A stretch of 55,497 nt of DNA from a virus (IMGVR_UViG_3300047564_004158:1-55497), one strand, 5' to 3'; positions 2,367 through 55,495 are shown, counted from the stretch's first letter. Numbers and translations are program-made. The notes: generated from the sequence alone by a model not told the origin.

Positions 2367-2621
2367 ATGACAACCAAGGTTTATAGATTAATGGGTATAG
2401 ACACAGCAATGCACCTGCTTAGACCAGGTGCGCGCTGGGAAATTAGCAACAATTATTTTTCACGCTGGGAAGATCCTAGACCTTGCCCAACTATAGAAGA
2501 AGTTTATGCTACAATAGAAAAGATTAAACAATTCGAAGATAGTATTGATACTATATATTTACCAGAACAACTAGAAGCAATGGGCGTGCGTGAACAAGAG
2601 ATAGCAGATGCAATTAAATAA
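2367..2621 (+). CDS. Small hypothetical protein, possible fibre assembly chaperone
   Basis: 84 aa with LRPGARWE...W.DPRPCP motif, directly after a fibre gene. Function inferred from position only. Confidence 0.45.
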   Translation: MTTKVYRLMGIDTAMHLLRPGARWEISNNYFSRWEDPRPCPTIEEVYATIEKIKQFEDSIDTIYLPEQLEAMGVREQEIADAIK

Positions 2622-3207
2622 TTTATTTCCTATACCCATAGGATTTTTTGAGTATACAAGTAGTTTAGACAGTGAATTAGACTATGTAACAAATTTAGAG
2701 CAGCGTAATAATCAAGGCAATACAACTAGTGTTGATAATTATGTACTTAAAGATTACCACTTACAAGAATTAAGTAGTTGGATCGACAATTGTATTAGCC
2801 AGTACTTTAGAGCAACTGCAAATCCCAAATATGATGTTCAGTTGTACACAACCCAAAGCTGGATAAATTTTACCAAGCAGGGCCAGTACCACCACAAGCA
2901 TGAGCACCCCAACAGCCTAGTAAGCGGTGTGTTTTACCTGCAAACTAATCCAGATGATAAGATATATTTTTATCGCAGCGGCTATCAACAAATTAAATTT
3001 CCGCCAGAACAGTGGAATGAGTACAACAGTGAAAGCTGGTGGTATGAGGCCCAGGCCGGTAAGCTGATCCTGTTTCCTAGCAGCTTAACACATCAAGTGC
3101 CTACTGTCGGTGGCACAACAACAAGAATTAGCCTAAGTTTTAACACCTTTGCTAGTGGCACTATAGGTGAAAATTTAGAATTAACCGAATTAATTGTGGA
3201 GCACTAG
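2608..3207 (+). CDS. Putative 2OG-Fe(II) oxygenase (TIGR02466-like)
   Basis: SWIN...HHKHEHPNSLVSGVFYL...LILFPSSLTHQV...RISLSFN: HxH..H metal triad and RxS motif. Confidence 0.85.
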   Translation: MQLNNLFPIPIGFFEYTSSLDSELDYVTNLEQRNNQGNTTSVDNYVLKDYHLQELSSWIDNCISQYFRATANPKYDVQLYTTQSWINFTKQGQYHHKHEHPNSLVSGVFYLQTNPDDKIYFYRSGYQQIKFPPEQWNEYNSESWWYEAQAGKLILFPSSLTHQVPTVGGTTTRISLSFNTFASGTIGENLELTELIVEH

Positions 3208-3573
3208 ATGGCACACTTTGCAGAATTAGATGAAAATAATACAGTATTGCGTGTAGTTGTAGTAGACAATCGTGATACTAGTGATAAGTCGGGCACAGAG
3301 CGTGAGCATATTGGACAAGCACACCTAGAAAAGATCTTAGGCGGTGTGTGGCGACAAACTAGTTATAATGCCACATTTAGAAAAAATTATGCTGGTGTGG
3401 GATATACCTATAACAGTCAACTAGACGCATTTATTCCGCCTAAGCCCTATACTAGCTGGGTTTTAGATACACAGACTTGTACTTGGCAAGCACCACAACC
3501 ACAACCTACTAGTGGCGGACCTTATAGGTGGGATGAGCCAACTACTAGTTGGCAACAAATAACAAACGATTAA
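3208..3573 (+). CDS. Conserved phage protein (MAHFAELD...QTSYN...RKNYAG), possible fibre chaperone
   Basis: 121 aa; motif family typically adjacent to Gly-rich fibre genes. Confidence 0.55.
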   Translation: MAHFAELDENNTVLRVVVVDNRDTSDKSGTEREHIGQAHLEKILGGVWRQTSYNATFRKNYAGVGYTYNSQLDAFIPPKPYTSWVLDTQTCTWQAPQPQPTSGGPYRWDEPTTSWQQITND

Positions 3574-3589: not shown

Positions 3590-6500
3590 ATGTCGTTTAC
3601 TAGAATAGATGCTAATAATATTAGCCCAAGCGGTGTTGCAGCGGGTACATATACAAATCCTACCATTACTATTAACAGTAGTGGACAGGTTACTGATGCT
3701 AGTAGTGGTCAGCTTGCTCAAGGTATTCAAGGCTTACAAGGTATAATTGGCCCACAAGGTGTACAAGGCTTAGGTGGCATACAAGGTAGCAGTGGCTATA
3801 TTGGCAGTGATGGTATACAGGGCATACAAGGTATACAAGGTGCGGGAGCAGGCCTAGCAGTTGCAGAGTATACTACCTATGTATACACAGGTGACGGTAC
3901 TACAACAACTTTTGCTGCTACCAGCGGACTAACAGTACACACAATACTTGTAGTAGTTGATGGTGTTACACAAACACCTACTACCAACTATACTATTAGT
4001 GGCAGCAACATAGTCCTGGCAAGTGCACCACCTAGTGGTAGTGTTGTACAGCTACGTGTACTTGGCGGACTTATAGGTCCACAAGGTATTAGTGGTGGTA
4101 GTGGTAGCAGTGTTACTATTTCTAGTATTGAAGTAACTGATAGCAGTTATAGTGTGTTAGACGATACAGCGGTTAGTGTTAATGGTGGATACATAAAGAT
4201 TACAGGAACTGGATTTGTTAGTGGTTGTCAAGTCGTCATAGGCAGTGCAGTAGCAAGTAGTGTAACCTATGTTTCTAGCACAGTAGTTCATTGTCAAGTA
4301 CCAGCACAAACAGCAGGTACTTATACAGTTTACTTAACTAACCCTAATGGCAGCGTTGCTATACGTGTAAATGGTATTAACTACAGCTCAACACCTACCT
4401 GGACAACTACCAGTCCACTACCTGGCGGAGTTAAAAACACCGCTATAAGCATACAGTTGGCGGCAACTAGTAACAGTGCTATAACCTACAGTTTAGCTAG
4501 TGGCAGTACGTTACCTAGTGGATTGACACTAAGCACTAGTGGATTACTATCAGGAACTGTAACTACAATAACAGCAGATACGGCTTATAACTTTACCATA
4601 GTAGCTACTGATCAAGAAAACCAAGACACTCCACAGGCATTTCAAATTACTATTATTATTGGTGATCCTTACTATGAGTATGTAACACTACACCTACCAG
4701 GCACTGGAACTAATCTTGCTACAAATAATACTTTTCTGGATAGTTCTATCAATAACTTCACCATTACACGTAGTGGAAATACTACGCAGGGTACGTTTAG
4801 TCCGTTCTCACAGACGGGGTGGGGGAATTATTTTGATGGGAGTGGGGATTATCTTGCGTTAAGTTCGCCAGCGGTTCCAGCATCCACTTCAGACTTTACA
4901 TTAGAGGGATGGTTTAATGTTTCAAATTACTCTGCTACAAGAAATATTTTTACTCAAAACCAAACCGGTGCTTCAAGCGACGGAAGAATAATTGTTAACA
5001 TTACAACAGCTGGTATATTAAATGCAACTATAGGTGGAACAAATCTGCCTGGAACTTTAAATACAACAACAACTATTACAACTAATGTCTGGCATCATTT
5101 CGCTCTTGTAAGGAGCAGCAATACTTTTACGCTTTATCTTAATGGCGTTTCTGAGGTTACAGGGTCTGGCACAGGCACAATTGCTAATCAAAATTCTTAC
5201 ATAGGTTCAAATCTAACTCAATCTGTATATTTTTTGGGCAGTTTGTCTAATATTAGGGTGGTTGCTTCAGCCGTCTACACCAGCAACTTCACACCACCAA
5301 CCGCCCCTCTTACCGCCATCTCTGGCACAAGTCTCCTAACCTGCCAATCCAACCGATTCATTGACAACAGCAGCAACAACTTTGCCATCACAGTCAACGG
5401 AAACACCTCCGTACAAGCCTTCTCCCCATTCAACCCCACTGCAAGCTGGAGTGCTGCGACTTATGGTGGGAGTGGGTATTTTGATGGTAGTGGGGACTAT
5501 TTGACTGCGCCAAACAATGCAGCATTTGCGGCACTTCCTGGAGATTTCACGCTTGAATTATGGGTTTATCTAACGGCACAGACGACTGGAAACGCTTTAT
5601 TTGGGCCGTGGGCAGGAAGTGCAGGAAGCGCAGCCAACTCTTCTTGGTTATTTACACAGGGAACAACCTCTGCGTCAAATCTCAGATTTGTTTACTCAAA
5701 CGGCTCAAGTGTTGTTATATATGAAGGGTCAGGTGGTTTAGGGACAAATCAATGGTTTCATCTTGTAGCTGTTCGTTCTGGTACTAACTTTGCTTTATTT
5801 TCAAACGGCAATCGTGTTTATAGCAACGCATCAGTTTCAGCAAGCATTCCTCAAAATACTAGTAACTTGGGAGTTATGGCAGGAGCTGATGGAGCTTTTG
5901 CTTCCACTGGTTATGTATCAAGTGCAAGGGTTGTCAAAGGCACAGCAGTCTACGACCCAACCCTAACCACCCTTACAGTCCCAACCGCACCACTCACCGC
6001 CATCACCAACACATCCCTACTACTCAACTTCACCAACGCCGGTATCTACGATGCTACAAGTAAGAATGACTTGGAGACGGTGGGGAATGCTCAGATAAGT
6101 ACGACACAGAGTAAGTTTGGTGGAAGTAGTATGTCCTTTGATGGGACGGGGGATTCATTAATTACACCTGCATCAATTGTAAATAGCATTGGGACTGGTG
6201 ATTTCACAATTGAATTTTGGTGCTATCCAAGTAATACAACCGCAGCCTATAGAGCGATAGTGGCAAGTGAAAATTATAATTCTACAGCAGGTGGTTGGAG
6301 TTTTTATCAAAATGGAACTGGCATTGAAATTTATTTAACTAGCGGAGCCCTTATTACAGCAGCATCTCAATTAGTTGCGTCTACTTGGCAACATATTGCG
6401 TTAGTTAGATCCGGCTCCGCAAGCAATAATTGTAAATTATATGTTAACGGTACAAATGTAGCTTCTGCGACAAATACGGCAGACTGGACAGGCCAAAGAG

Positions 6501-6637
6501 TTTTTATTGGTGATAATAATTATACGGGCGTTGATTATTTCTTTAACGGCTACATCCAAGACCTTCGCATCACCCGAGGCTACGCTCGCTACACAAGCAA
6601 CTTCACACCACCAACCCAAGCTTTTCAAACCCTTTAA
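3590..6637 (+). CDS. Tail fibre/adhesin: N-terminal fibre motif, collagen-like segment, IPT/TIG + Ig domains, three LamG/ConA-like domains
   Basis: GVAAGTY..ITINSSGQVT; QGIQG repeats; SGSTLPSGLTL Ig motif; three FDG.GD...DFT.E.W...W.H.A.VR...(S/D).R units. Confidence 0.85.
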   Translation: MSFTRIDANNISPSGVAAGTYTNPTITINSSGQVTDASSGQLAQGIQGLQGIIGPQGVQGLGGIQGSSGYIGSDGIQGIQGIQGAGAGLAVAEYTTYVYTGDGTTTTFAATSGLTVHTILVVVDGVTQTPTTNYTISGSNIVLASAPPSGSVVQLRVLGGLIGPQGISGGSGSSVTISSIEVTDSSYSVLDDTAVSVNGGYIKITGTGFVSGCQVVIGSAVASSVTYVSSTVVHCQVPAQTAGTYTVYLTNPNGSVAIRVNGINYSSTPTWTTTSPLPGGVKNTAISIQLAATSNSAITYSLASGSTLPSGLTLSTSGLLSGTVTTITADTAYNFTIVATDQENQDTPQAFQITIIIGDPYYEYVTLHLPGTGTNLATNNTFLDSSINNFTITRSGNTTQGTFSPFSQTGWGNYFDGSGDYLALSSPAVPASTSDFTLEGWFNVSNYSATRNIFTQNQTGASSDGRIIVNITTAGILNATIGGTNLPGTLNTTTTITTNVWHHFALVRSSNTFTLYLNGVSEVTGSGTGTIANQNSYIGSNLTQSVYFLGSLSNIRVVASAVYTSNFTPPTAPLTAISGTSLLTCQSNRFIDNSSNNFAITVNGNTSVQAFSPFNPTASWSAATYGGSGYFDGSGDYLTAPNNAAFAALPGDFTLELWVYLTAQTTGNALFGPWAGSAGSAANSSWLFTQGTTSASNLRFVYSNGSSVVIYEGSGGLGTNQWFHLVAVRSGTNFALFSNGNRVYSNASVSASIPQNTSNLGVMAGADGAFASTGYVSSARVVKGTAVYDPTLTTLTVPTAPLTAITNTSLLLNFTNAGIYDATSKNDLETVGNAQISTTQSKFGGSSMSFDGTGDSLITPASIVNSIGTGDFTIEFWCYPSNTTAAYRAIVASENYNSTAGGWSFYQNGTGIEIYLTSGALITAASQLVASTWQHIALVRSGSASNNCKLYVNGTNVASATNTADWTGQRVFIGDNNYTGVDYFFNGYIQDLRITRGYARYTSNFTPPTQAFQTL

Positions 6638-6655
6638 ACAAACAGTGAGAATCTT

Positions 6656-9600
6656 ATGGTAACACGAGTTCCAACCAGAATGATAACAACTACCGGCGTT
6701 CAGGCCGGTAGTTATACTGCCGCAGATATTACTGTTAATGAAGCAGGTCAAATTACTAGTGCAGCAAGCAACAGTGTGGTTGTTAGTGGTGGCGGTGGTG
6801 GGCCTAAAATTACTGGTGTGGCGGTAACTGACAATGTTTGGACTGCCCTAGACGATACAGCTGTTGATGTGCTGGGCGGTTATATTAAGATTACTGGTAG
6901 TGGTTTTAGTAGTGGCTGCCTAGTCTACTTTAACCAAACCCCAGCTAGCAGCGTTAGTTTTATATCAAGCACTGAGTTGCGTGTAACTACAGGTGCACTA
7001 AGTGCAGGTACTTATGTAGTTTATGCAATTAATACTGATGGTGGTGTAGCTATTAGTGTACCAGGTGTTACCTTTAGTGCAACACCTGGCTGGCAGACTG
7101 CTAGCACGTTAAGTGATCAATATGACGGTGTAGCTATCACACTAAGTTTAATAGCTAGTGATGCTACCAGTTATACACTTGTATCAGGCAGTTTACCACC
7201 AGGACTTAGTTTAAACGCCAGTACCGGTGCTATTACCGGTACTGTGGTGGGTGTTACGGTAGACACTAGTTATACATTTACTGTGCGTGCAACAGATGCT
7301 CAAAATCAAGACAGTCCGCGTACATTTACTGTTACTATTACAGTTAGTGATCCTTACTTTAATAGGACAACACTATTATTGTCGGGCAGTGCACTAACTA
7401 CCAATACAGTATTACGCGATAGTAGTACAAATAATTTTAACCTTACTGCCTATGGTGATGCACGTGCTAGTAACTTTACACCATATGGAACTGGGTGGTC
7501 GTTATATACAAATGACAGAAGTTATCTAACCATACCTGCTAGCAGTGATTTTGACGTAATAAATACAGATTTTACTATTGAATTTTGGATTAATTTTGAA
7601 GCCTTTAGTACAATGGCTTCTTCAGGTAATAATATAGCCGGACCAGGGCTATCAAATTATGCTAGTAGTTGGTTTGTAAATTTTGGTGGATCTGGTACTA
7701 CTGTTACTACACTTAATTATACCGTTATGACCTCACTAAGTGTAGGAACTAGTAACAGTTTTACTGTAAGTTTAAACTTTAATACTTGGTATCACGTTGC
7801 TTTTGTTAGATCTGGATCTGGCCCTGGAAATTTTAAACTGTATATTAATGGTATTCAACAAGGAGCCGCACAGAATCAAGTTACTTATTCTGGGGCAGGA
7901 TCAACAATGGCTATTGGATCTGGGTCATTTATACAAAACAGTACTTATTCTGGCAATTCTTCCTATTTCTTATCTAATTTTAGACTAACTAAATCAGCAG
8001 TATATTTAGAAAATTTTACACCAGCTACAACACCTCTTACTGCTCTAGAAAATACTACATTATTATTATTTAATCAGTCAAGATTAATTAATGCGGGAAC
8101 AAATACTGGAACAATAACTTCTTCGGGGTATACTTCTACTAGAGCTAAATTAATAAGTTTTAATCCATTTGGGATCACCAATACTGGTGTCAATGGATCC
8201 ATGTATTTTGACGGCACCACTGATAGCGTAAGACTGCCTAGTAATGCAATAAGTGCGTTACCCGGTGATTTTACGTTAGAATTCTGGATTTACTTAATTT
8301 CTACAACAGGTAATCCTGTTATATATTTAGTGAATGCTACAGCCGCATTGATCATCTATGTTGTCAGTAGTAAAGTGGTAGTAAGAACTTTTGGAACAGC
8401 AGATTTATTGACATCTGTGGACAATATTCAAATTAATACTTGGACTCACGTCGCAGTAGCTAGAAGTGGCTCTGCTCTGTCGCTTTGGTTAAATGGGTCC
8501 CGAGCCAGTGGAGGAACCGTTACGTATTCAACCGCGTTCCCACAAGGTGAGATTAGAATAGCCACCAATGAGCTTGATGCTCAATCAACTAATGGTTACA
8601 TAGCCGATCTAAGATTAATAAAAGGGACGGCTCAATATAATCCAAGTAATACTGCAATCACCGTACCTACTGCCCCACTTACCGCAGTCGCCAACACACA
8701 ATTACTTACTTTACAATACGATCAACCTCACAACAACCACGCATTATTAGACGCCAGTAGTAATCAACACTTAATCACACGCAACGGAAATGCCACGCAA
8801 GGTAGTTTTTCACCGTTTAGTCAGACTGGGTGGGGAAATTATTTTAAGACAGGAACAGACGCAATTACTTCTGCAAGTTCATCTGGTTTTGCTTTTGGTA
8901 CAGGCAACTACACTATTGAAGCGCAGATTTATTGGTCAGGGTCATCTTCGGAATTTCAAATAACCGGTTCATCTAGCAACAATTTTAATTTGTATATAAA
9001 CGCTACGACCATAGGCTTTTACGATGGGACATCAGGAATAACCAGAACAACAACTATAAGCAAAAACACTTGGCTTTATATCGCATTGGTAAGAAGTGGC
9101 GGATCGCTGACATTTTATTTGAATGGGTCTGCGGTAGGAAGCACAACAGCAAGCTCAACAAATTATTCTGCTTTTCAATTAATAGCAGGAAGAAATACAA
9201 CGGCTGGTACAAGTTGGGCTGATGGTTATATATCTAACTTGCGTATTTCAAATCTAGCAAGAACAATTTCTTCTACGCCTACAAGCGCATATACCCAAGA
9301 CGCGAACACAGTATTTTTACTTGGGAATACAAATAGGTTTTTGGATCAAGGCGTCAACGGACTTGCTTTAACGATAACCGGAACACCTTCTGTAGTCGCC
9401 TTTAGCCCATTCAACCCCACCGCAGTTTATAATCCTGCAACACATGGTGCTTCGGCGTATTTTGATGGAACGGGAGATTACGTAACTGTTGCTGACAATC
9501 CAGCCTTTAACTTTGGTAATGGCGATTTTACTATGGAATGTTGGGTTTATCCAACTGCTAGTGGATCATTATTTTCTAAGCGAGCAAACAATGCCACATA

Positions 9601-10612
9601 TGCTCCCTTTAGTGCAGGGTTTGATTCATCAATGATACCTAGTATATACTGTAGTACTAACGGCACTACCTGGGGGGTGAATTTAGTTAGTAGTATAGCA
9701 GGACGATTTAATTCTTGGAATCATATCGCATATACTAGATTGGGTTCGACTTTTACTATTTGGGTAAATGGAATCAGCGGAGGCACTAGTACTGCAATTG
9801 GTACAAGCAGTCTTATGACTAATTCTACAGCAGTTGCCATTGCAGCAACCGCAGCTGATGGTAACAGCCCAATGACTGGATACTTAACTGGTGTAAGGTT
9901 TATAAAAGGTACGGCACTATATACCACCGCATTTACACCACCAACGGCACCACTTACTGCCACTACCAACACAAGCATCTTACTCAACTTCACCGACGCA
10001 GCCATCCTAGACAGCACCGGGCGTCAGGTATTTGAGACTGTGGCAGACGCCAAGTCCAGTGGTGTGGTAACTAAGTTTACTGGTGGATCTATATCATTTG
10101 ATGGTACTGGGGATGCTTTAAGATTTATTCAAAGTCCATACTGGAATATAACTTCAACTACAACACACACTATTGAAGCTTGGGTATATCACACTGGAAC
10201 AACGGCTAAAACAATTTGTAGTAATTACTGGTATCAAGACGGAAGCAGTGAATATGGTTGGATGTTCCAGATACTTAACACTAGTAGTGTACTACGATTT
10301 GCAAGTGCAGCAGCAAGTTCAGTGGTAGCATCTACAACTGCTGTTCCAACAGGTGTATGGGCACATGTTGCAGCTACAATCGTCAATCTAAATGTAACTT
10401 TTTATATTAACGGTGTTAATGCAGGTGGGGGAGGTACAGTTAGTTCCATAAACTATACTAATACCATACCATCAGTCGGTGCAGCTTATTCAAATGGTGG
10501 ATTTAATAGTGGTCCATTTGTAGGATATATCAACGACCTACGCATTACACAAGGCCACGCTCGTTACACTGCCAACTTCACTCCACCAACTGCTCCACAC
10601 AGGTTAAAATAA
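6656..10612 (+). CDS. Tail fibre/adhesin: N-terminal fibre motif, IPT/TIG + Ig domains, five LamG/ConA-like domains
   Basis: Same stalk as the 3590 gene (DDTAV..GGYIKITG, TDAQNQDSPR) followed by five LamG-like cores. Confidence 0.85.
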   Translation: MVTRVPTRMITTTGVQAGSYTAADITVNEAGQITSAASNSVVVSGGGGGPKITGVAVTDNVWTALDDTAVDVLGGYIKITGSGFSSGCLVYFNQTPASSVSFISSTELRVTTGALSAGTYVVYAINTDGGVAISVPGVTFSATPGWQTASTLSDQYDGVAITLSLIASDATSYTLVSGSLPPGLSLNASTGAITGTVVGVTVDTSYTFTVRATDAQNQDSPRTFTVTITVSDPYFNRTTLLLSGSALTTNTVLRDSSTNNFNLTAYGDARASNFTPYGTGWSLYTNDRSYLTIPASSDFDVINTDFTIEFWINFEAFSTMASSGNNIAGPGLSNYASSWFVNFGGSGTTVTTLNYTVMTSLSVGTSNSFTVSLNFNTWYHVAFVRSGSGPGNFKLYINGIQQGAAQNQVTYSGAGSTMAIGSGSFIQNSTYSGNSSYFLSNFRLTKSAVYLENFTPATTPLTALENTTLLLFNQSRLINAGTNTGTITSSGYTSTRAKLISFNPFGITNTGVNGSMYFDGTTDSVRLPSNAISALPGDFTLEFWIYLISTTGNPVIYLVNATAALIIYVVSSKVVVRTFGTADLLTSVDNIQINTWTHVAVARSGSALSLWLNGSRASGGTVTYSTAFPQGEIRIATNELDAQSTNGYIADLRLIKGTAQYNPSNTAITVPTAPLTAVANTQLLTLQYDQPHNNHALLDASSNQHLITRNGNATQGSFSPFSQTGWGNYFKTGTDAITSASSSGFAFGTGNYTIEAQIYWSGSSSEFQITGSSSNNFNLYINATTIGFYDGTSGITRTTTISKNTWLYIALVRSGGSLTFYLNGSAVGSTTASSTNYSAFQLIAGRNTTAGTSWADGYISNLRISNLARTISSTPTSAYTQDANTVFLLGNTNRFLDQGVNGLALTITGTPSVVAFSPFNPTAVYNPATHGASAYFDGTGDYVTVADNPAFNFGNGDFTMECWVYPTASGSLFSKRANNATYAPFSAGFDSSMIPSIYCSTNGTTWGVNLVSSIAGRFNSWNHIAYTRLGSTFTIWVNGISGGTSTAIGTSSLMTNSTAVAIAATAADGNSPMTGYLTGVRFIKGTALYTTAFTPPTAPLTATTNTSILLNFTDAAILDSTGRQVFETVADAKSSGVVTKFTGGSISFDGTGDALRFIQSPYWNITSTTTHTIEAWVYHTGTTAKTICSNYWYQDGSSEYGWMFQILNTSSVLRFASAAASSVVASTTAVPTGVWAHVAATIVNLNVTFYINGVNAGGGGTVSSINYTNTIPSVGAAYSNGGFNSGPFVGYINDLRITQGHARYTANFTPPTAPHRLK

Positions 10613-10621
10613 GGAATAACC

Positions 10622-11536
10622 ATGACAACAAAAATAACTGATGCAAACATAGAAGCTACCGGCGTAAGTGCCGGTAGCTATACTGCAGCAGACATTACTG
10701 TTAATAGCAGTGGACAGATTACTAGTGCTAGTCAGGGTATTGGCGGATTTGGTGCACAGGGCACGCAAGGCCTACAAGGTATTAGTGGTTATGTAGGTTC
10801 TGACGGTGCGCAAGGTATACAAGGACCTGCAGGTAGTAATGGTGGAGGTATCGGAACTAGTAATTACGGCGGTGTAGGATACTTAACTTATAATTATGTA
10901 GGGGACGGTTCTACAACCACTTATGCTACTAATAGTGAAATAGCAGAGTTAGATTCAAATAATATATTAGTAACTGAAAACGGTATCTTACAAGTACCTA
11001 CAATTGATTATACAGTTGTAAATACAAATGTAATATTTACTACAGCGCCAGCTTTAAGCAATAATATTCAAATAAGAGTACTTGGCCTTAGAGGGTTACA
11101 AGGTATAACTGGTTTGCAAGGTATAGTAGGCACACAAGGTGTACAAGGCTTAAGCGGTCAATTTGCTGGGCAAGGTGTCCAAGGAGTTCAAGGGGTACAA
11201 GGACTATCTTCACAGCTAGAAAGGCATTATAATGTGCCTGGTATAGTGGCTGTTTCAACCGGAAGTAGTAGATGGTGGATTCAAAGCAATATTTTAATTA
11301 CTCAACTAAGAGCTCAGGTTACAATAGCACCCACAGGTACAGGCATAATAATAAATGTAAATAAGAATGGTAGTCAAATAGCACAATTAAGTATAGCAGC
11401 TACTACTAATTCTATAGAATCTGCTGTAAATATATTCGCCGCAAAAGACGATTACTTTACTGTTGATGTAATACAAAAGGGTAGTATTATTGCTGGCTCA
11501 GACCTGGTTATTAGTTTTTTATACAGAAGGACATAA
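10622..11536 (+). CDS. Collagen-like fibre/decoration protein
   Basis: Shared N-terminal fibre motif, QG.QG repeats, GDGSTTTY...IQIRVLG module, beta-rich C-terminus. Confidence 0.75.
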   Translation: MTTKITDANIEATGVSAGSYTAADITVNSSGQITSASQGIGGFGAQGTQGLQGISGYVGSDGAQGIQGPAGSNGGGIGTSNYGGVGYLTYNYVGDGSTTTYATNSEIAELDSNNILVTENGILQVPTIDYTVVNTNVIFTTAPALSNNIQIRVLGLRGLQGITGLQGIVGTQGVQGLSGQFAGQGVQGVQGVQGLSSQLERHYNVPGIVAVSTGSSRWWIQSNILITQLRAQVTIAPTGTGIIINVNKNGSQIAQLSIAATTNSIESAVNIFAAKDDYFTVDVIQKGSIIAGSDLVISFLYRRT

Positions 11537-19259: not shown

Positions 19260-21050
19260 ATGACAACAAAAATTAATTTCAATAATATTTCTAATACTGG
19301 AGTAGTGTCCGGTACTTATAGTAATAGTATTATTAGCGTAAATGAGCAAGGCCAAATTACTTCAGCAGCCATAGGACAAAAAATACCTATAATTACTACT
19401 GTAAAAATTACTGATACTAGTTGGGTACCATTGGACGACTTAGAAGCAGATACTACTGCAGCAAATATAAGAATTTTGGGCAGTCAATTTGAACAAGGCT
19501 GTCAAGTACTATTTAATAATTTGGTAGCAACAAGCACTAGTCTTTTAAATTTTACTAGAACTACTGTAAGTACACAGTCGTTAACAAGTATATTGGACTT
19601 TACTACTACAGCAGATTTAACAGTAGGTATGCTAGTAAACGGTACAGGAATACCTTCTGAAACTACTATAACTGCAAAATTAAGTGCCACAAGAATACAA
19701 TTAAGCAAAAATTTAACTACTGCTGTACCATCTGGCAGTATTATAACATTTTCTAATAGTAATGAATTATTAATTACAGCTAATAATATACCTACAGGTA
19801 TTTATAATATTAGTGTTGTTAATCCTCAAGGTGGAATTGCTACAAAATTGAATGCTATAACTTTTGGGTCTAAGCCAATATGGGTTACTGCTACAACTCT
19901 ACCGGCTCAAAATCAACAAACTAGTTACAGCCAACAACTTTCTGCTACTTATGCAACAACATATTCTATTGAACCAGGCAGTGCTTTACCAGGTACTTTA
20001 ACGCTTAGTAGTAGCGGTCTTATTTCCGGTAATTTACCAGTAGTTACACAAAATAGTACGTATACATTTACTATAAGAGCAACAGATGCAGAATTACAAG
20101 ATAGTTTGAGAACATTTAGTTTAACTGTGTATAGGGGTACAGCTACAGCTACTATTAATCCTGCTGTTGATGGCAAAACTACTTGGGATTTTAACACAGA
20201 TGGACCAATAAATTTTACTAGTGCAGGTACTTGGACTTTAACTCCTACCACAAATTTTTATGCTTTTACTAAGGTATGGGGAGCTGGTGGTGGTGGAGAC
20301 ACTGGTGGAGGTGGTGGCTATGCTTTTGGTAACGTTTATTTTCAAAATAATCTTCCCTACTTATTTGTAGTTGGTTCTGGAGGTAATGCTGGTACAGGCG
20401 GTACAGGTGGTACAGGCGGTACAGGAGTAGGTACTGGCGGCACAGGTGGAGCGGGTTTCTACGCTGCCGCTGGTGGCAGTGGCGGCGGGGCTGGTAGTGG
20501 TATATTTCAACCAAATAGTATAAGTCAGGCAAATGCTATTATAATAGGCGGCGGAGGAGGTGGTAAAAGCACTAGACTTCAAGGCGGAGGCGGTGGAGGA
20601 ACTACAGGTAGCTTTGGTACTAATAGTGGAGTTGGTGGAGCTTCTGAAGGAGGTAGAGGTGGCACACAAACTGAGGCAGGTGCCGGCGGAACTGGGAATT
20701 CACCAGCCACCGCTATATACCCAGGTGGTTCTGGTAGCGGTATGAACGGAGGAGCTGGAGGTGGAGGCGGTGGATCTTATTTAGGTGGAGGTGGAGGTGG
20801 TGGTTATTTTGGCGGCGGTGGCGGTGGCGGTGGCAATTCGTTTGGTGCTGGTATAGACGGAGCCGGTGGTGGCGCTAGCGGCCGAGTAAACACAAATACT
20901 ACGCTAATAAATCAAACATATTTAGAAACTGCTGGACGTTCTATAATACCTGCCAATTCTACGGATCCAAATAAGTTTTCTACAGCAGGTGTAGGTGGGG
21001 CTTTAACCGATAGCAAAGGCGGCTCAGGGCAAATTTATATATTTGTATAA
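19260..21050 (+). CDS. Fibre/adhesin: N-terminal fibre motif, IPT + Ig stalk, C-terminal glycine-rich domain
   Basis: TFTIRATDAELQDSLR Ig motif, then KVWGAGGGG...GGGGGYFGGGGG. Confidence 0.78.
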   Translation: MTTKINFNNISNTGVVSGTYSNSIISVNEQGQITSAAIGQKIPIITTVKITDTSWVPLDDLEADTTAANIRILGSQFEQGCQVLFNNLVATSTSLLNFTRTTVSTQSLTSILDFTTTADLTVGMLVNGTGIPSETTITAKLSATRIQLSKNLTTAVPSGSIITFSNSNELLITANNIPTGIYNISVVNPQGGIATKLNAITFGSKPIWVTATTLPAQNQQTSYSQQLSATYATTYSIEPGSALPGTLTLSSSGLISGNLPVVTQNSTYTFTIRATDAELQDSLRTFSLTVYRGTATATINPAVDGKTTWDFNTDGPINFTSAGTWTLTPTTNFYAFTKVWGAGGGGDTGGGGGYAFGNVYFQNNLPYLFVVGSGGNAGTGGTGGTGGTGVGTGGTGGAGFYAAAGGSGGGAGSGIFQPNSISQANAIIIGGGGGGKSTRLQGGGGGGTTGSFGTNSGVGGASEGGRGGTQTEAGAGGTGNSPATAIYPGGSGSGMNGGAGGGGGGSYLGGGGGGGYFGGGGGGGGNSFGAGIDGAGGGASGRVNTNTTLINQTYLETAGRSIIPANSTDPNKFSTAGVGGALTDSKGGSGQIYIFV

Positions 21051-32027: not shown

Positions 32028-32513
32028 CTATTTTCCAGTACTGCCAAATCCTCCAGTACCGCGTTCTGTATCATTCCAGCTGTCGACAAAATCACAGAGT
32101 ATAACTGGCATAATTACCAGCTGTGCAATTCTATCGCCAACATCTATTGTATATCTATTGTCACTAATATTTTTTAGTGGGATTTTTATATTTCCACGAT
32201 AATCACTGTCAATAACGCCTACGCCATTAAGCAACATAATTCCCTTTGAGCCTTGTCCCGATCTGTTAAATATAAACCCGCCGAAACCCTGTGGAATTTT
32301 TATGGCTACACCAGTATCTATAAGTTTTGTTTCGCCAGGATAGATTTCACACTTTTCAGTGCTGCGTAGGTCTGCTCCTGCATCGGTAGCATTAGCGCGT
32401 TTAGGTAAGTAAGCTGCGTTATCTACTCTACACTCTACAACTTGTTTAATCATTATATCACGGCTGTGATCGTAGCTACTGTTAATATTAAAAAATTGTG
32501 TACTATGTTTCAT
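32028..32513 (-). CDS. dut: dUTPase
   Basis: DAGADL, RSG, GVIDSDYRG, DRIAQL, RGTGGFGSTG motifs. Confidence 0.96.
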   Translation of the reverse strand: MKHSTQFFNINSSYDHSRDIMIKQVVECRVDNAAYLPKRANATDAGADLRSTEKCEIYPGETKLIDTGVAIKIPQGFGGFIFNRSGQGSKGIMLLNGVGVIDSDYRGNIKIPLKNISDNRYTIDVGDRIAQLVIMPVILCDFVDSWNDTERGTGGFGSTGK

Positions 32514-33346
32514 CGTATAGTTAGCTCTAAAATTTCATCAATTTGTTTACAATTTTCTGCACCTATTGCATCACGACAATAGGTAACAAGATCCATAAGT
32601 TGATAATTAAGCTCTAGCTGTTCTCGGTTTTGGTTGATCGCTTCAATATACTTGTAGCGACCTTGTAAGGGAATACTGTTAATAATATCCCAGGTAGTAC
32701 CGTACTCTTCAACAAGCTGCTGAGCACGCTTAGGTCCAACACCAGGCACACCAGGGACATTATCGCCACTATCGCCCATAAGACACTTAACAGAAATATA
32801 TTGTTCTGGTTCAAATGCGTAGTGATCATTCCAGCTATCCCACGTAACTTCTTTTCTAGTAACATAACTAAATCTCCCTACACCAGGCTTAATTAATAAG
32901 TCCCAATCTTTATCACTGCTCATTAACCAAATTTCATTTAGTGGAAGCTTACGTTTTTTGCCAACAATATAGGCAGCAATATCGTCTGCTTCAACTCCTT
33001 GAAATCGTAACACTGGATAGTGCTCACTAAGCAATTCAAGTGTACTAGTAAAATCTTCAAAGAATAGTTCAAACTCAAGTTGCTCGGCTTCGGTTTGTTG
33101 TTCGTACTTATCTTTACGATTTTGTTTGTATAGCGGATAAATAGCTTTGCGATAGCTGCTAGACCCTTGATCTGCTGCTATGATAACCCACTTGGCCTTA
33201 TAACTCTTTTTTAAGCTTTCAACAGTGCGTAAGTAGTCCTCTGCAAAATCTCTGGCTCCACTATGTTTATAGCGAAAAGCAAGATTAAGTGCATCGACTA
33301 TCATCAGTGTCTTTTCGGTTGTTTCAAATTCTGTAAAAGGTTTCAT
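32510..33346 (-). CDS. 5'-3' flap endonuclease (T5 D15-like)
   Basis: DALNL, YKQNR, EADD, SSDKD, GDSGDN.PGV.GVGPKRA motifs. Start moved to ATG 33346 because the track's TTG lies in the promoter -35 box. Confidence 0.93.
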   Translation of the reverse strand: MKPFTEFETTEKTLMIVDALNLAFRYKHSGARDFAEDYLRTVESLKKSYKAKWVIIAADQGSSSYRKAIYPLYKQNRKDKYEQQTEAEQLEFELFFEDFTSTLELLSEHYPVLRFQGVEADDIAAYIVGKKRKLPLNEIWLMSSDKDWDLLIKPGVGRFSYVTRKEVTWDSWNDHYAFEPEQYISVKCLMGDSGDNVPGVPGVGPKRAQQLVEEYGTTWDIINSIPLQGRYKYIEAINQNREQLELNYQLMDLVTYCRDAIGAENCKQIDEILELTIR

Positions 33347-33371
33347 ATCATTTTTTAGAGTGTAATCTATT

Positions 33372-33400
33372 ATTATATCACTGTTGATAAGCCGTGTCAA
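33372..33400 (-). promoter_or_regulatory. sigma70 promoter
   Basis: TTGACA-17 nt-TATAAT with TGn extended -10. Confidence 0.9.
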
Positions 33401-34034: not shown

Positions 34035-35837
34035 TTATCCCTCAATACGAGATACGTTATTACGCTTGATAACATTTATTTTTTCCAATAGAGGATGGCT
34101 AAAACCGTGGCTGACTAGGAATGTGTTTAAATGTTCCTCGCCTAGTAATACTTCTACTAGCTTTTCTTTACCATCTACATCTAGTGCTTCTACAGTTTCG
34201 TCTAATATAAGTAGATTAATTCTGCTAGCACTAAGTGTTTGCATTAATTTTCTAATAGCAAGTAATGTTGCTACATTTACACGAGCTTTTTCGCCACCGC
34301 TAAGTGCGTTAATGTCAATGTCACGGCCGTTATCTGTAATGATAACATTAAGTTTATCACTACTATTTACTTTAAAGCCAATCTGAAATCTGCCATCACT
34401 TAAGTCTACAAGATACTTATTAGTAATATCTTCTAAATCTTTTACTAAGCACTCTATTTTGTAGGCTACTAGTCCAGTTGTTGAAAACGTTTTTGTTAGT
34501 ACTTGCAGTATACTCATGCGTTCATTCATAATATTAAGCTGAAAACTATGTTCTTCTAGCTCTGCACCCATCTCTTGCAACTGTTGTTTAATGGTTTCTA
34601 CACGGCTATTATGTTGCTGAACTTTTAAGTTATTTTCTTCTGCTAATTTAATACGCTGCTGAGTATCTTTAAGCGTTTTAGCTAAATCGTCATATTTAGT
34701 TTGTAGGTCATCTTTAACAAGTGTTTTCTGTGGCAGTGAATTATCCACCAATATATGAAGCTTTTCCCACTCCATTTGCTGCTTAACATTTTGCTGATAA
34801 AGTTTATCTTGCTGCTCTAGTTCATTACTGGCAACTAATACAGCAGCAGCACTTGCTCTTGCTGATTCAATTTCCTGACTTTTATCATTGATTAATTCTG
34901 CTACTTTTACACTGTCTATTTGACTAAAACAAGTAGGACATATGCCTTGTAAGCTGTTAAGTTTTTTAACAAATGCCTCACCATCACGCACAGTTTTCAT
35001 GTGCTCAGCTTGCTCTTGTTGTAGTCGCTTAATATGCTGCTGATCTATTTTAGCGGGACCTGGTATCTTTAGCTCTATACTATTAAGCTGCTGCTTGTAA
35101 GTATTATTTTGTATAATCTTACGATTAGTCTTGTCTAGATTAGCAATCTCTAGTTCTAGTTCGGCTACTTGTTTGGGTAGCTCGCTATCCAAGGTTTCTA
35201 CTATGTGAAAACTTTTTACAGTTAGATCAGTTTTTTCGTACTTGTCTAGCCAATTATTAATAGTAGTAATTTTAGCTTGACACTCGGCAATTTCTTTGCC
35301 TAGCCCTAAGGTAACTTCCTTAAAAACTTCGCTTGCACGAGTATACTTTGTTAAGTTTAAGATTTCTATAAGAAACTTTTTACGTGCTGTATCTGCACTA
35401 GTTAAAAACTCTAGACTACTAGCATTACTTTGGTAGACGATTTGTGCAAAGCTTTTGTGATCAATGCCTATAATATCTTCAATAATTTTATAGGTTTGTG
35501 TAGCTGTATGACCACTAATATCATTACCATTTTTTAACAATTTTACAGTTTGCTGTGCGCCACGATTGCAGCGTATAGTATACTCATTGCCATCACGTTC
35601 TAAGTCTAGTTCAATAGTATAGTTTTTATCTTTGATATATCTGTTTAATATATCTGACTTTTTAATACCTTTACTATTTTTATTAAATAGTACTTCTTCT
35701 AGGATAAGTGCTATGCTACTTTTTCCGTGACCATTTTTACCAACTAGTTGTGTTAGTGGGGCTTTTACAAAGTTGATAACATTACCAGCCCCATAACTAA
35801 AACAATTACTCCAACGTAGTTCTTTGATTGTTATCAT
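34035..35837 (-). CDS. SbcC/Rad50-like recombination ATPase (T5 D13-like)
   Basis: GKNGHGKS, CPTC hook, LSGGE, LDE, VSH motifs. Confidence 0.93.
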   Translation of the reverse strand: MITIKELRWSNCFSYGAGNVINFVKAPLTQLVGKNGHGKSSIALILEEVLFNKNSKGIKKSDILNRYIKDKNYTIELDLERDGNEYTIRCNRGAQQTVKLLKNGNDISGHTATQTYKIIEDIIGIDHKSFAQIVYQSNASSLEFLTSADTARKKFLIEILNLTKYTRASEVFKEVTLGLGKEIAECQAKITTINNWLDKYEKTDLTVKSFHIVETLDSELPKQVAELELEIANLDKTNRKIIQNNTYKQQLNSIELKIPGPAKIDQQHIKRLQQEQAEHMKTVRDGEAFVKKLNSLQGICPTCFSQIDSVKVAELINDKSQEIESARASAAAVLVASNELEQQDKLYQQNVKQQMEWEKLHILVDNSLPQKTLVKDDLQTKYDDLAKTLKDTQQRIKLAEENNLKVQQHNSRVETIKQQLQEMGAELEEHSFQLNIMNERMSILQVLTKTFSTTGLVAYKIECLVKDLEDITNKYLVDLSDGRFQIGFKVNSSDKLNVIITDNGRDIDINALSGGEKARVNVATLLAIRKLMQTLSASRINLLILDETVEALDVDGKEKLVEVLLGEEHLNTFLVSHGFSHPLLEKINVIKRNNVSRIEG

Positions 35838-35997
35838 TTTTCCAAAACTTCTTTTTATTTAAAAAGCCCAATTGCTCTACTAACAAGATTGCGTTCTTGG
35901 CTTGTTCATAGTAGTCAAACCAACGTTCTTGATCACCACACTCGCGTTCAGCCATTATTCTAGCTACATAGATCATATTTGGGTGATACTCATTCAT
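35806..35997 (-). CDS. Small hypothetical protein
   Basis: 63 aa filling the D12-D13 gap. Confidence 0.5.
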   Translation of the reverse strand: MNEYHPNMIYVARIMAERECGDQERWFDYYEQAKNAILLVEQLGFLNKKKFWKNDNNQRTTLE

Positions 35998-36949
35998 TTT
36001 CTATTTTATCCAGATGATTTTGCACCTCAACCGCAGCACGCTCTACAACCTCCTCAGGCAGGGCTAGTATATAACGTAAGTATTCGCGTACTTCTTCTAG
36101 GAGTGTCATCTCACTATCTAGCATAAGCTGTACATCGCTTGTGCGCTTGATTACCTTGCGGTCAATTAACTCACTGTCCTCCAACTCACCTAACTCTTGC
36201 AGGTCGCCCTCAACTTGATAAATTGTGTGATGATAGTCGGTTGGCGGTTTAGGGTCACTAGCACCAACAGTTTTACGTATAAGTTGTGGTAATTCTAGCT
36301 TAATCCAACTATGTTTTAGTGTATCTGTATCTAGTAAGATTACACCTGTGTCAACAGGTTGACGATGAAAGCTAGTAGTAACAGGGCTGCCGGGATAGAG
36401 AATATTGAGCTGACAATTTTCATAGCTATGTAGGTCTCCGGCTAAGACAACGTCCCAGCCACTAAAAATTTTTAAATCTACTTCAGGCGTTACATGTGGA
36501 GGTATTGCACCACGAACGTGTGTGCATAATATTTGACCACCTTCAGGCCAAGGATTGTTCTGTTCAAAGTCCTTGAGCTTGTTGTATGGAACAAACTCTA
36601 TGCCATAGTCGCTATAGTAGTCATCTACTACTATAACTTTGCGATTCATTAAATTAGTAGCTCGTGCTAAATTTGTTAAAAACGTTGTGGACTTTTTAAC
36701 AGCTTCATGATTACCGCTGTATATGATTGTGTTAATATTACAGTGACTAATCATATCAAAGTAAATCTCTAACTCATCCATACTAGGTAATTTATCAAAC
36801 ACATCTCCGCCTATTACAAATAAGTCAGCTTTAGTTTGTTGCTCAGCCAGTTGTTGCCACAACAATTTATATCTATTTCTAGCCCAATCTACAGGTACAT
36901 TCTTTTGCCCTAATTTTATATGAATATCGGCTGTAAATAATACTTGCAT
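35990..36949 (-). CDS. SbcD/Mre11-like nuclease (T5 D12-like)
   Basis: DIH, GDVFD, GNHE, THV, GDLH, YPGS metallophosphoesterase motifs. Confidence 0.93.
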   Translation of the reverse strand: MQVLFTADIHIKLGQKNVPVDWARNRYKLLWQQLAEQQTKADLFVIGGDVFDKLPSMDELEIYFDMISHCNINTIIYSGNHEAVKKSTTFLTNLARATNLMNRKVIVVDDYYSDYGIEFVPYNKLKDFEQNNPWPEGGQILCTHVRGAIPPHVTPEVDLKIFSGWDVVLAGDLHSYENCQLNILYPGSPVTTSFHRQPVDTGVILLDTDTLKHSWIKLELPQLIRKTVGASDPKPPTDYHHTIYQVEGDLQELGELEDSELIDRKVIKRTSDVQLMLDSEMTLLEEVREYLRYILALPEEVVERAAVEVQNHLDKIENE

Positions 36950-51890: not shown

Positions 51891-51968
<78 letters not shown>

Positions 51969-51969
<1 letters not shown>

Positions 51970-54239: not shown

Positions 54240-54314
54240 TGGTACTCGGTGACAGTTTCGAACTGCCGACCCTCACGGTGTAAACGTGACGCTCTACCAC
54301 TGAGCTAACCGAGC
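54240..54314 (-). tRNA. tRNA-Val (TAC)
   Basis: GCTCGGT...TCACG-TTTACAC-CGTGA...TTCGAAA...ACCGAGT-ACCA. Confidence 0.93.
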
Positions 54315-55419: not shown

Positions 55420-55495
55420 TGGAGCGGCAAATCGGTCTCGAACCGACAACATCCTGCTTGGAAGGCAGGTGCTCTACCAATTGAGCTATTGCCGC
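55420..55495 (-). tRNA. tRNA-Gly (TCC)
   Basis: GCGGCAA...CCTGC-CTTCCAA-GCAGG...TTCGAGA...TTGCCGC-TCCA. Confidence 0.94.

Follow-up and report, generated by a model that had tools for sequence, protein, structure and literature searches.

In the window, as the whole 55.5-kb stretch of viral DNA analysed here is called (IMG/VR virus record IMGVR_UViG_3300047564_004158, completeness ~51%), the gene at 3590-6637 on the + strand encodes a predicted tail-fibre protein of 1015 aa, gene 1, that consists of a conserved framework and three exchangeable Laminin_G_3 (LamG) cassettes. Comparison with relatives delimits each cassette as an FDGxGDY strand, a variable core, and a C-terminal strand with its PTAPLT linker. 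It further establishes that cassettes are replaced by homologous recombination, with junctions at or just within flanking blocks of skewed codon usage, and that they also move from one slot to another and from phage to phage. Each stretch of framework separating two cassettes has two parts, first a C block and then a G block, and these skewed blocks directly flank each cassette. The skew may be a consequence of recombination or an aid to it, produced by strand-asymmetric GC-biased repair or by selection in the homology arms, a reading to which we give a probability of about 0.45.

Together with its paralogue, gene 2, gene 1 qualifies as a predicted Laminin_G_3 / concanavalin A-like lectin tail-fibre protein by Pfam matches above the gathering score. 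Laminin_G_3 (PF13385) matches three stretches of gene 1 with an E value of 4.8e-51 and 173.3 bits, compared with a gathering cut-off of 27.6. The protein also carries a He_PIG Ig domain (3e-11) and a collagen-like / T7-fibre N-terminal part, for which the Phage_T7_tail match (1.9e-5, 24.9 bits) lies slightly below the Pfam cut-off of 25.2.

The skewed blocks and the cassettes alternate along the + strand. Arm I holds a C block at 4745-4780, which is weak in the window (third bases TCTCCCTATT in the 10-codon bin starting at 4745) and strong in the family of 76 sequences described below, where the share of C-ending codons (C3) is 0.66 and exceeds that of G-ending codons (G3) in 75/76. The G block of arm I (4781-4858; third positions A1 C1 G12 T12, 24/26 G/T) runs up to and includes FDGxGDY, the motif that forms the left junction of cassette 1. 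Cassette 1 (4859-5335) comprises a variable LamG core at 4859-5254 and the conserved C-terminal strand and PTAPLT linker (C1) at 5255-5335. The C block of arm II, termed C2 (5336-5446; C3>G3 in 76/76), follows, with the C tract of the window beginning earlier, at 5267 (A13 C39 G0 T7 in the 59 codons of 5270-5446), and the G block of arm II (5447-5509; A0 C1 G7 T13, 20/21 G/T) again ends in FDGxGDY. Next come cassette 2 (5510-6001; variable core 5510-5932, C1 5933-6001) and the C2 block of arm III (6002-6049; C3>G3 in 75/76), whose C tract in the window begins at 5933 (A11 C24 G0 T2, or 35/37 C/A, over 5939-6049). The G block of arm III (6050-6154; A4 C2 G14 T15, 29/35 G/T; family G3 0.35-0.39) leads into the variable core of cassette 3 (6155-6544). 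Finally, the C block of arm IV (6545-6619) covers the last strands of domain 3, with 16 C and no G in 25 third positions and C3>G3 in 74/76 over 6545-6604; the wider stretch 6539-6634 counts A8 C18 G0 T6 in 32 codons.

A first-pass annotation of this DNA had drawn attention to the skew, and the six third-position counts that it made by hand were all reproduced exactly in the open reading frame (ORF) 3590-6637. It had also named codon-shuffled controls as a check. Compared with 300 shuffles exchanging synonymous codons within the gene, the C/A segments of arms II, III, and IV scored 36.2, 26.6, and 16.1 (shuffle maximum 13.3), and the G/T segments scored 13.5 in arm I, then 8.9 and 11.3 (shuffle 99th percentile 8.7, maximum 10.6), placing all six above the 99th percentile. 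The three cores use A/T-ending codons in 106/137, 105/143, and 100/128 positions. The same preference had been claimed for the rest of the genome, and codon usage across 47 ORFs of the window agrees, with G at 0.00-0.17 of four-fold degenerate sites and C/(C+T) at 0.12-0.48 in two-fold pyrimidine-ending codons. Within the 55 kb, 14 patches are C-rich and G-poor (shuffle mean 7.7), seven of them in the two LamG fibre genes, and only in these two genes do such patches exceed the shuffle expectation. The C-rich tracts span 82-165 nt with 42-51% C and 4-10% G.

The pattern is not a peculiarity of one genome. At least 587 relatives of the module were found in IMG/VR, of which the best 80 were kept; these gave 88 colinear ORF segments, reduced to 75 by removal of 13 identical or ambiguous ones, and the window brings the set to 76 three-LamG modules. 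Two relatives lie on very large IMG/VR contigs, L076 (524,565 bases) and L078 (331,654 bases), which may be jumbo phages or host-linked DNA. The family third-position profile agrees with that of the window: C3 is 0.47-0.66 in the C blocks and G3 0.31-0.40 in the G blocks, compared with A 0.28, C 0.18, G 0.13, and T 0.40 in the cores. The polarity proposed from the window alone, in which a G block precedes and a C block follows each exchangeable unit in the 5' to 3' direction, holds in the homologous LamG genes, where C3 exceeds G3 in 74-76/76 sequences for each of the four C blocks and G3 exceeds C3 in 46-54/76 for each of the three G blocks. All seven blocks are skewed as predicted in 36/76, and the window ranks among the most extreme members.

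The arms had been expected to be near-identical across phages, which in general they are not: their median nucleotide identity is 0.61-0.72. At four-fold sites, arms differ in 0.50-0.65 of comparisons among 2850 pairs and cores in 0.69-0.70, and a saturation level of ~0.6 follows from the block compositions by our own arithmetic. Since arm synonymous divergence is near saturation, yet the skew persists, the skew is a maintained stationary state rather than a mark of shared ancestry. The share of codons ending in G or C (GC3) averages 0.55 in arms and 0.30 in cores, and across the 76 sequences arm GC3 tracks core GC3 (rho 0.76). In a second sample, 70 distinct sites picked solely by a degenerate YFDGSGDY pattern, the same tendency was seen in weaker form (TTT 67/TTC 3 and GAT 63/GAC 7, with upstream C3 of 0.33-0.46 and G3 of 0.07-0.09). 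A further 33 anchors, meant as controls from other LamG linkers, turned out to be largely false matches or variant forms of these arms and gave no clean control set.

Exchange of the cassettes is seen in the differing conservation of arms and cores. Median amino-acid identity over the 2850 pairs is 0.65-0.83 in arms vs 0.28 in cores, the 76 sequences hold 71, 72, and 63 core alleles in slots 1, 2, and 3, and 5, 5, and 16 pairs share core 1, 2, and 3, respectively, at ≥80%. In 74 pairs the C2+G element of arm III is ≥90% identical, yet the cores on its two sides are each <60% identical in 67 of them; arm II gives 25 such pairs, 19 of them with both neighbouring cores <60% identical. That the conserved linkers are sites of LamG core exchange, with breakpoints inside the arms, had been put forward from the window sequence and is borne out by natural mosaics. 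For example, L014 and L019 are identical as far as arm III and only 0.43 identical in core 3, whereas L017 and L027 have core 2 alone in common. Five core pairs are common to different slots, among them core 1 of L002 and core 2 of L077, which agree at 99.7% over 354 nt. These cross-slot tracts start at 4829-4850, in the FDGxGDY motif of arm I, and end at 5285-5336 for cassette 1 and 5969-6020 for cassette 2, that is, in the C1 strand/linker or early C2. Same-slot tracts end at 5261-5342, 5501-5504, 5918-6032, and 6128-6152, and for seven pairs that have core 3 in common and differ in core 2, the tracts extend from 5918-6032 to 6566-6632.

Slot 3 differs from slots 1 and 2. Its junction falls at the beginning of arm IV, and the last strands there are C-skewed (C3 0.48-0.56); the homologous strands of slots 1 and 2 are carried along with the cassette and lack the skew (C3 0.20-0.33). 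Pairwise identities of the three C2+G elements are intercorrelated (rho 0.53-0.66) and do not correlate with those of the cores or C1 (rho about 0). As the elements correlate with one another and not with cores or C1, gene 1 would comprise a vertically inherited framework (late C2 and the G block) carrying often-replaced cassettes (FDG strand, core, and C1). Recent gene conversion among the arms of one genome was rejected, as these arms are just 67-79% identical, a 28-nt match at 96% being the sole exception.

Contigs from natural communities give the same picture. Parts of the fibre gene stretch occur in sequencing runs from 17 studies, most of them freshwater, and contigs of 4 of the 24 runs listed, from four studies, were aligned at ≥90% identity (the tables of runs X6 and X7 are nearly alike and may be one data set). 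In run X5, with 325 contigs, summed depth reached 3148 and 3376 in two bins containing a flip from C to G block, and was 0-11 in core bins away from block boundaries (4904-5239, 5576-5911, and 6248-6499). Many contigs link arm to arm with different letters between, and core 1 of the window recurs in contigs of other studies with 0 or 1 differences. Core 2 (5576-5911) was uncovered in the four runs aligned, where absence of cover proves nothing. The first-pass annotation had suggested comparing arms and cores with viromes, and contigs from other freshwater studies do accumulate on the arms; nucleotide sharing in nature is highest where the skew is highest.

An AlphaFold2 monomer model of module residues 1-640, built on an alignment of 60 of the 76 sequences (mean predicted local distance difference test score, pLDDT, 78.3), shows three beta-sandwich domains, with internal pLDDT below 50 only at residues 21-35, 235-251, and 440-460. 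The three flips, at residues 23, 245, and 446, fall within these stretches. Because the flips thus lie at predicted inter-domain stretches, the coding sequence of each structural domain would begin G-rich and end C-rich, as far as a monomer model can represent a presumably trimeric fibre. The low-pLDDT stretches are also among the most conserved of the module, with overlapping 10-codon bins reaching a mean consensus share of 0.93-0.95. Flexible linkers are not usually so conserved, and trimer contacts or conservation at the DNA level may be the reason.

The skew consists of gains of one base per block. In C blocks, every amino acid is moved toward its C-ending codon except Gln and Lys, which remain A-ending; compared with cores, TTC rises to 0.70 from 0.18, ATC to 0.62 from 0.14, GGC to 0.58 from 0.26, ACC to 0.49 from 0.12, and CGC to 0.52 from 0.10. 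In G blocks, AAG stands at 0.92 vs 0.26 in cores, CAG at 0.77 vs 0.27, GGG at 0.47 vs 0.12, ACG at 0.46 vs 0.15, and CCG at 0.59 vs 0.18. The T-ending codons of Phe, Asn, and Tyr remain near core values in G blocks (TTT 0.68 vs 0.82, AAT 0.59 vs 0.61, TAT 0.70 vs 0.66), and Asp is more T-ending there than in cores (GAT 0.76 vs 0.61). G blocks gain G from A, the largest single change, and also from T, while C blocks gain C from T, A, and G, four-fold transversions included, and four-fold A-ending codons are depleted ~two-fold in C blocks. The first-pass description of a keto/amino split was thus right about a one-sided bias and wrong about G/T and C/A classes, as the blocks gain only G or only C. 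There is no general keto/amino split, because the T-richness of G arms and the A-richness of C arms are the genome background.

Preferences also differ from site to site. In the arm II G block, the Gly codon at 5465 is GGT or GGC with GGG in 0/74, while the Gly at 5474 is GGG in 67/76; other sites of this block hold TTT 69/TTC 6 and GAT 72/GAC 2. Gln is CAA in 59/63 at 5414 but CAG in 60/71 in arm I. Because these preferences are specific to single sites, regional mutation bias alone is insufficient. Avoidance of homopolymers (runs of five or more identical bases) would fit several of the site-specific exceptions. Amino-acid context was ruled out as the driver of the third base: the collagen-like Gly-rich ORFs of the window keep A/T-ending codons, with G at only 0.03-0.04 of four-fold sites, and G minus C at positions 1-2 does not predict G minus C at position 3 in the arms (r=0.31, p=0.1, 28 blocks).

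Several lines of evidence favour a recombination-linked cause. The blocks are exactly the framework DNA adjoining the junctions, the change is from A/T (W) to G/C (S) on one strand only, and contig sharing in nature peaks at the skew peaks. In addition, arm GC3 follows core GC3 yet exceeds it, which fits a constant S-ward push against the AT pressure of the genome. The blocks would be the only DNA expected to form repeated mismatched heteroduplex between diverged phages, and the unalignable adjacent cassette would fix the polarity of that heteroduplex. If mismatches were then corrected on one heteroduplex strand only and with a GC bias, A/T would be pushed to G on whichever strand runs 5' to 3' into the cassette, namely the + strand to its left and the - strand to its right. 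Which mismatch is corrected would decide whether the break falls in the cassette, as first proposed, or at the flip. Such strand-asymmetric biased mismatch correction is a possible, if doubtful, cause and is ranked above direct selection for G+C-richer, strand-pure arms that pair well, which we consider quite unlikely.

A number of observations weigh against a recombination-linked cause. The framework seems to be mostly vertical rather than constantly converted, because its three elements carry one phylogenetic signal. GC-biased gene conversion as known is strand-symmetric, and the bias rule used above is our own deduction, with other assumed glycosylase rules placing the break in the core or at the flip. 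Extra assumptions are needed for the single-site codon preferences and for the G-ending codons within the C-rich part of arm I (CAG 60/71, ACG 50/71). The G blocks are reversed or tied in 22-30/76 sequences. Phage DSL-LC04, at 52% amino-acid identity, has only a partial pattern, and five higher-GC phage homologues (Pseudomonas, Rhizobium, Burkholderia, Variovorax, and Ralstonia) have no clear pattern when inspected by eye, without statistics. One Rhizobium phage shows a run of A/T-ending codons after the motif, an anecdotal observation. Finally, a codon-speed programme, in which Watson-Crick pairing serves C-ending codons and wobble pairing G-ending ones, fits the same data.

It could further be speculated that the C block / G block pair is an evolved signal guiding recombination, with the G-rich strand running 5' to 3' into the cassette from both sides, although we regard this as unlikely. 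If true, the arms would be especially good substrates for strand exchange in an AT-rich genome, and a very large family of freshwater phage fibres would act across the community as a source of receptor-binding diversity, independent of reverse transcriptase and free to put any cassette into any slot. Phages would then have an equivalent of the GC-skewed Borrelia vls locus.

The strongest alternative, which we consider somewhat unlikely, is a translation-speed programme in which fast C-ending domain ends and a slow G-ending linker and first strand pace the co-translational folding of look-alike LamG domains. Watson-Crick decoding of C-ending codons and wobble decoding of G-ending ones would differ in speed, and the codon classes shift as such a programme would require: T to C changes occur only in the "fast" blocks and A to G changes only in the "slow" ones, with Lys AAG at 0.92 vs 0.26 as an example. 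G-ending codons are the rarest in the genome, a phage tRNA-Gly(UCC) would read GGG by wobble, the C-then-G order is the same in every linker along the direction of translation, and the flips coincide with the low-confidence inter-domain stretches of the model. Position-specific synonymous usage kept in diverged homologues is, moreover, the published signature of folding-related codon clusters, according to the available part of that report (PMC5438181). However, the blocks follow the cassette junctions and not homologous structural elements, as the last strands are C-skewed in domain 3 and not in domains 1 and 2. A-ending four-fold codons are also read by Watson-Crick pairing, yet they are depleted ~two-fold in C blocks. 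A domain leaves the ribosome tunnel 30-40 codons after its end, whereas the slow block begins at the domain end predicted by the model and not 30-40 codons later. Arm I is also present in short relatives, ~30-70 residues from the N-terminus, where it is preceded by no domain that could be folding. Gene 2 lacks any segment scoring 5 or more at its first two linkers, and no other multidomain structural gene of the window has such blocks. If translation were nonetheless the cause, the arms would count among the strongest examples known of synonymous programming conserved at domain junctions.

A nucleic-acid element with no link to recombination is very unlikely. It would consist of C-rich, G-poor unstructured RNA of a Rho-loading type followed by a G-rich tract, or of a regulatory mRNA helix driven by composition. 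The C-rich, G-poor tracts of 82-165 nt in the arms presumably resemble Rho-loading sites, and the C and G halves do pair in the minimum-energy fold (cross pairs 26/36, 43/60, and 44/69). Yet the folding energy is no better than in shuffles preserving the composition of each half (z = -0.48, +0.25, and -1.10), on which ground a specific RNA or DNA hairpin between the halves was also rejected, and there is no evident reason for such an element at each cassette junction.

The mechanism originally proposed for the skew, in which breaks in the core are resected, the 3' tails gather C>T and A>G damage, and the G/T-rich strand is the preferred RecA substrate, is now highly improbable. The polarity is as it predicts, with a G block left and a C block right of each exchangeable unit, A to G is the largest single change in G blocks, and the record encodes SbcC/SbcD-like and exonuclease proteins that might resect ends. 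However, cytosine loss is the dominant lesion of single-stranded DNA, and it is nearly absent here: the T3 and C3 of G blocks are near core values, as seen in their two-fold pyrimidine codons. Four-fold transversions to G or C and the preferences specific to single sites speak against it as well. In addition, no RecA-family recombinase was found in the window record, which is about half a genome, and a search at k=7 and k=8 found no Chi-like word that occurs both in the G blocks and in the reverse-complemented C blocks, so a Chi-like signal was rejected too. That the arms merely descend or were imported from a donor with other codon usage is hardly credible: their mean GC3 of 0.55 does exceed the 0.30 of cores, but the skew is found in 74-76/76 sequences despite near-saturated synonymous sites, foreign usage would not sort C-ending and G-ending codons into adjacent blocks, and arm GC3 tracks that of each phage's own cores (rho 0.76).

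Other known elements were rejected as well. A canonical G-quadruplex motif occurs on the + strand of arms I, II, and III in 5, 27, and 0 of 76 sequences and on the - strand in 0-1 of 75-76, and is thus unconserved; the only two canonical motifs in the 55-kb window lie at 4816-4847 (+, arm I) and 5956-5982 (- strand sense, arm III). For a diversity-generating retroelement, PF00078 (RVT_1) gave no match in the ~51% complete record, while control genomes matched. Neither a template repeat nor silent donor cassettes were found when 3590-10612 was compared with the window by blastn, which returned no near-identical core copy and best core-free matches of 66-83%. The cassette donors observed are expressed slots of other phages. 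An invertase or shufflon was rejected since no Resolvase match was obtained in the record and all matches within the window are direct; tyrosine recombinases were not searched. The initial idea of a diversification route that needs neither reverse transcriptase nor invertase is therefore consistent with the record as far as it extends.

The paralogue, gene 2 (6656-10612, +; 1318 aa), has five Laminin_G_3 stretches (229.8 bits) and shares 67-79% nucleotide identity with gene 1 in the arms (blastn, 3590-10612 against the window). Its skew is weaker, with C blocks at two homologous linkers, 8654-8788 (score 13.1) and 9965-10018 (15.2; shuffle maximum 9.9), no G block significant against shuffles, and, as said, no segment scoring 5 or more at the first two linkers. 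The end of gene 1 with the start of gene 2 (6548-6762) resembles the end of gene 2 with the start of the next ORF (10523-10728) at 69.6% over 217 nt, which suggests that the gene-to-gene junction is itself a repeated unit. Relatives such as L035 and L054 have two or three tandem fibre genes of LamG type encoding ~680 aa.

The window carries a tail and fibre module on the + strand and a replication and recombination module on the - strand, which encodes a ribonucleotide reductase, an SbcC/SbcD-like nuclease, an exonuclease, helicases, a DNA polymerase, a primase, a DnaB-like helicase, and an NAD ligase. The nuclease genes, SbcC-like, SbcD-like, and exonuclease, lie at 34035-36949 and 32510-33400 (-). 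Genes for tRNA-Met(CAT), tRNA-Val(TAC), and tRNA-Gly(TCC) are found near the record end on the - strand (51891-51969, 54240-54314, and 55420-55495), and as the tRNA-Gly gene touches the end, further tRNAs may follow. G-rich, C-poor patches are strong in the + strand ORFs 724-2358 and 19260-21050 (GC skew up to +0.3); they are due to Gly codons with A/T third bases, four-fold G being only 0.03-0.04. The former ORF matches phrog_2295 and a tail fibre assembly family, while the latter has no PHROG match.

The nearest named record is Phage DSL-LC04 from Dishui Lake (52% amino-acid identity), in which the homologue is annotated as a concanavalin A-like lectin/glucanase superfamily protein. A homologue search hit 278 records, cyanophage and other LamG fibre families among them. 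A megablast search with 25 kb of the window against named phages gave no match. The window and DSL-LC04 have the gene order 2OG-Fe(II) oxygenase, small ORF, lectin-like fibre in common; the oxygenase and small ORF stand directly 5' of the lectin fibre gene both in the window and in DSL-LC04 (window 2608-3573; L085 4291-5251). It could be guessed that the 2OG-Fe(II) oxygenase hydroxylates the fibre, given the collagen-like repeats of the latter. The available part of the DSL-LC04 paper predicts a Pseudomonadota host and leaves the lectin-like fibre gene undiscussed, the terms "concanavalin", "lectin", and "tail fiber" each having 0 occurrences there (PMC10611076).

Receptor-binding domains set phage host range, and the LamG fibre family is abundant, with nearly every genome carrying different cores. 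A skew signature marking the exchange framework would offer a simple means of spotting swappable receptor-binding modules in metagenomes and of mapping their junctions. As a repair footprint, the skew would reveal the polarity of strand exchange directly from sequence, which is rarely possible; as a product of selection, it would represent a new kind of recombination-promoting sequence. For studies of fibre modularity in laboratory phages, natural splice points are available at the FDGxGDY strand to the left and in the PTAPLT..TSLL stretch to the right.

Compared with known systems, gene 1 is most similar in organization to the T-even adhesins, in which conserved motifs (the glycine-rich motifs of gp38 and conserved motifs of gp37) separate hypervariable receptor-binding segments and a large community library of interchangeable parts exists, according to the part of the account available (PMC3157838). 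Both have hypervariable segments between conserved motifs (arms 0.65-0.83 vs cores 0.28 in gene 1), and both yield natural chimeras with junctions in those motifs, as comparative evidence suggests for gene 1. Unlike the gp37/gp38 loops, gene 1 exchanges whole LamG domains of ~140 aa with an unrelated fold, and its cassettes also move between slots; no gp37/gp38 family appeared in the Pfam search of gene 1, and a direct comparison was not made. Compositional polarity in the conserved motifs is not mentioned in the available portion of the T-even account (PMC3157838).

The nearest compositional analogue of the arms is the Borrelia vls locus, where, in an AT-rich genome, a locus of segmental gene conversion has a G+C of 49% vs about 29% and a GC skew of 0.52, features judged in the accessible part of the report to be under selection and linked to the conversion process (PMC11499132). 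The vls skew extends over whole cassettes on one strand with prominent G-runs, whereas in gene 1 it is confined to the flanking framework and flips strand at each linker. The vls donors are silent cassettes of the same replicon, whereas no silent copies were found in the window and canonical G-quadruplex motifs are unconserved in gene 1. Diversity-generating retroelements likewise diversify a receptor-binding domain on a conserved scaffold in a targeted manner; however, gene 1 alleles are distinguished by indels and by an amino-acid identity of ~28%, not by variation at adenine-templated sites.

Rare-codon folding clusters resemble the arms in having position-specific synonymous usage conserved in homologues near domain boundaries, as described in the accessible part of that work (PMC5438181). 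Unlike them, the effects in gene 1 are far larger, two opposite classes stand back to back, and the boundaries lie at recombination junctions. Classical GC-biased gene conversion has in common with the arms a silent W-to-S shift limited to heteroduplex-forming DNA and scaling with genome GC, but the arms gain G on one strand, and the strand switches across each cassette. T-even adhesins are already known to exchange receptor-binding segments at conserved motifs (PMC3157838). No description of codon or strand skew flanking phage LamG cassettes, including a strand-flipping C/G synonymous skew of their homology arms, was found in the open-access literature, supplements excepted.

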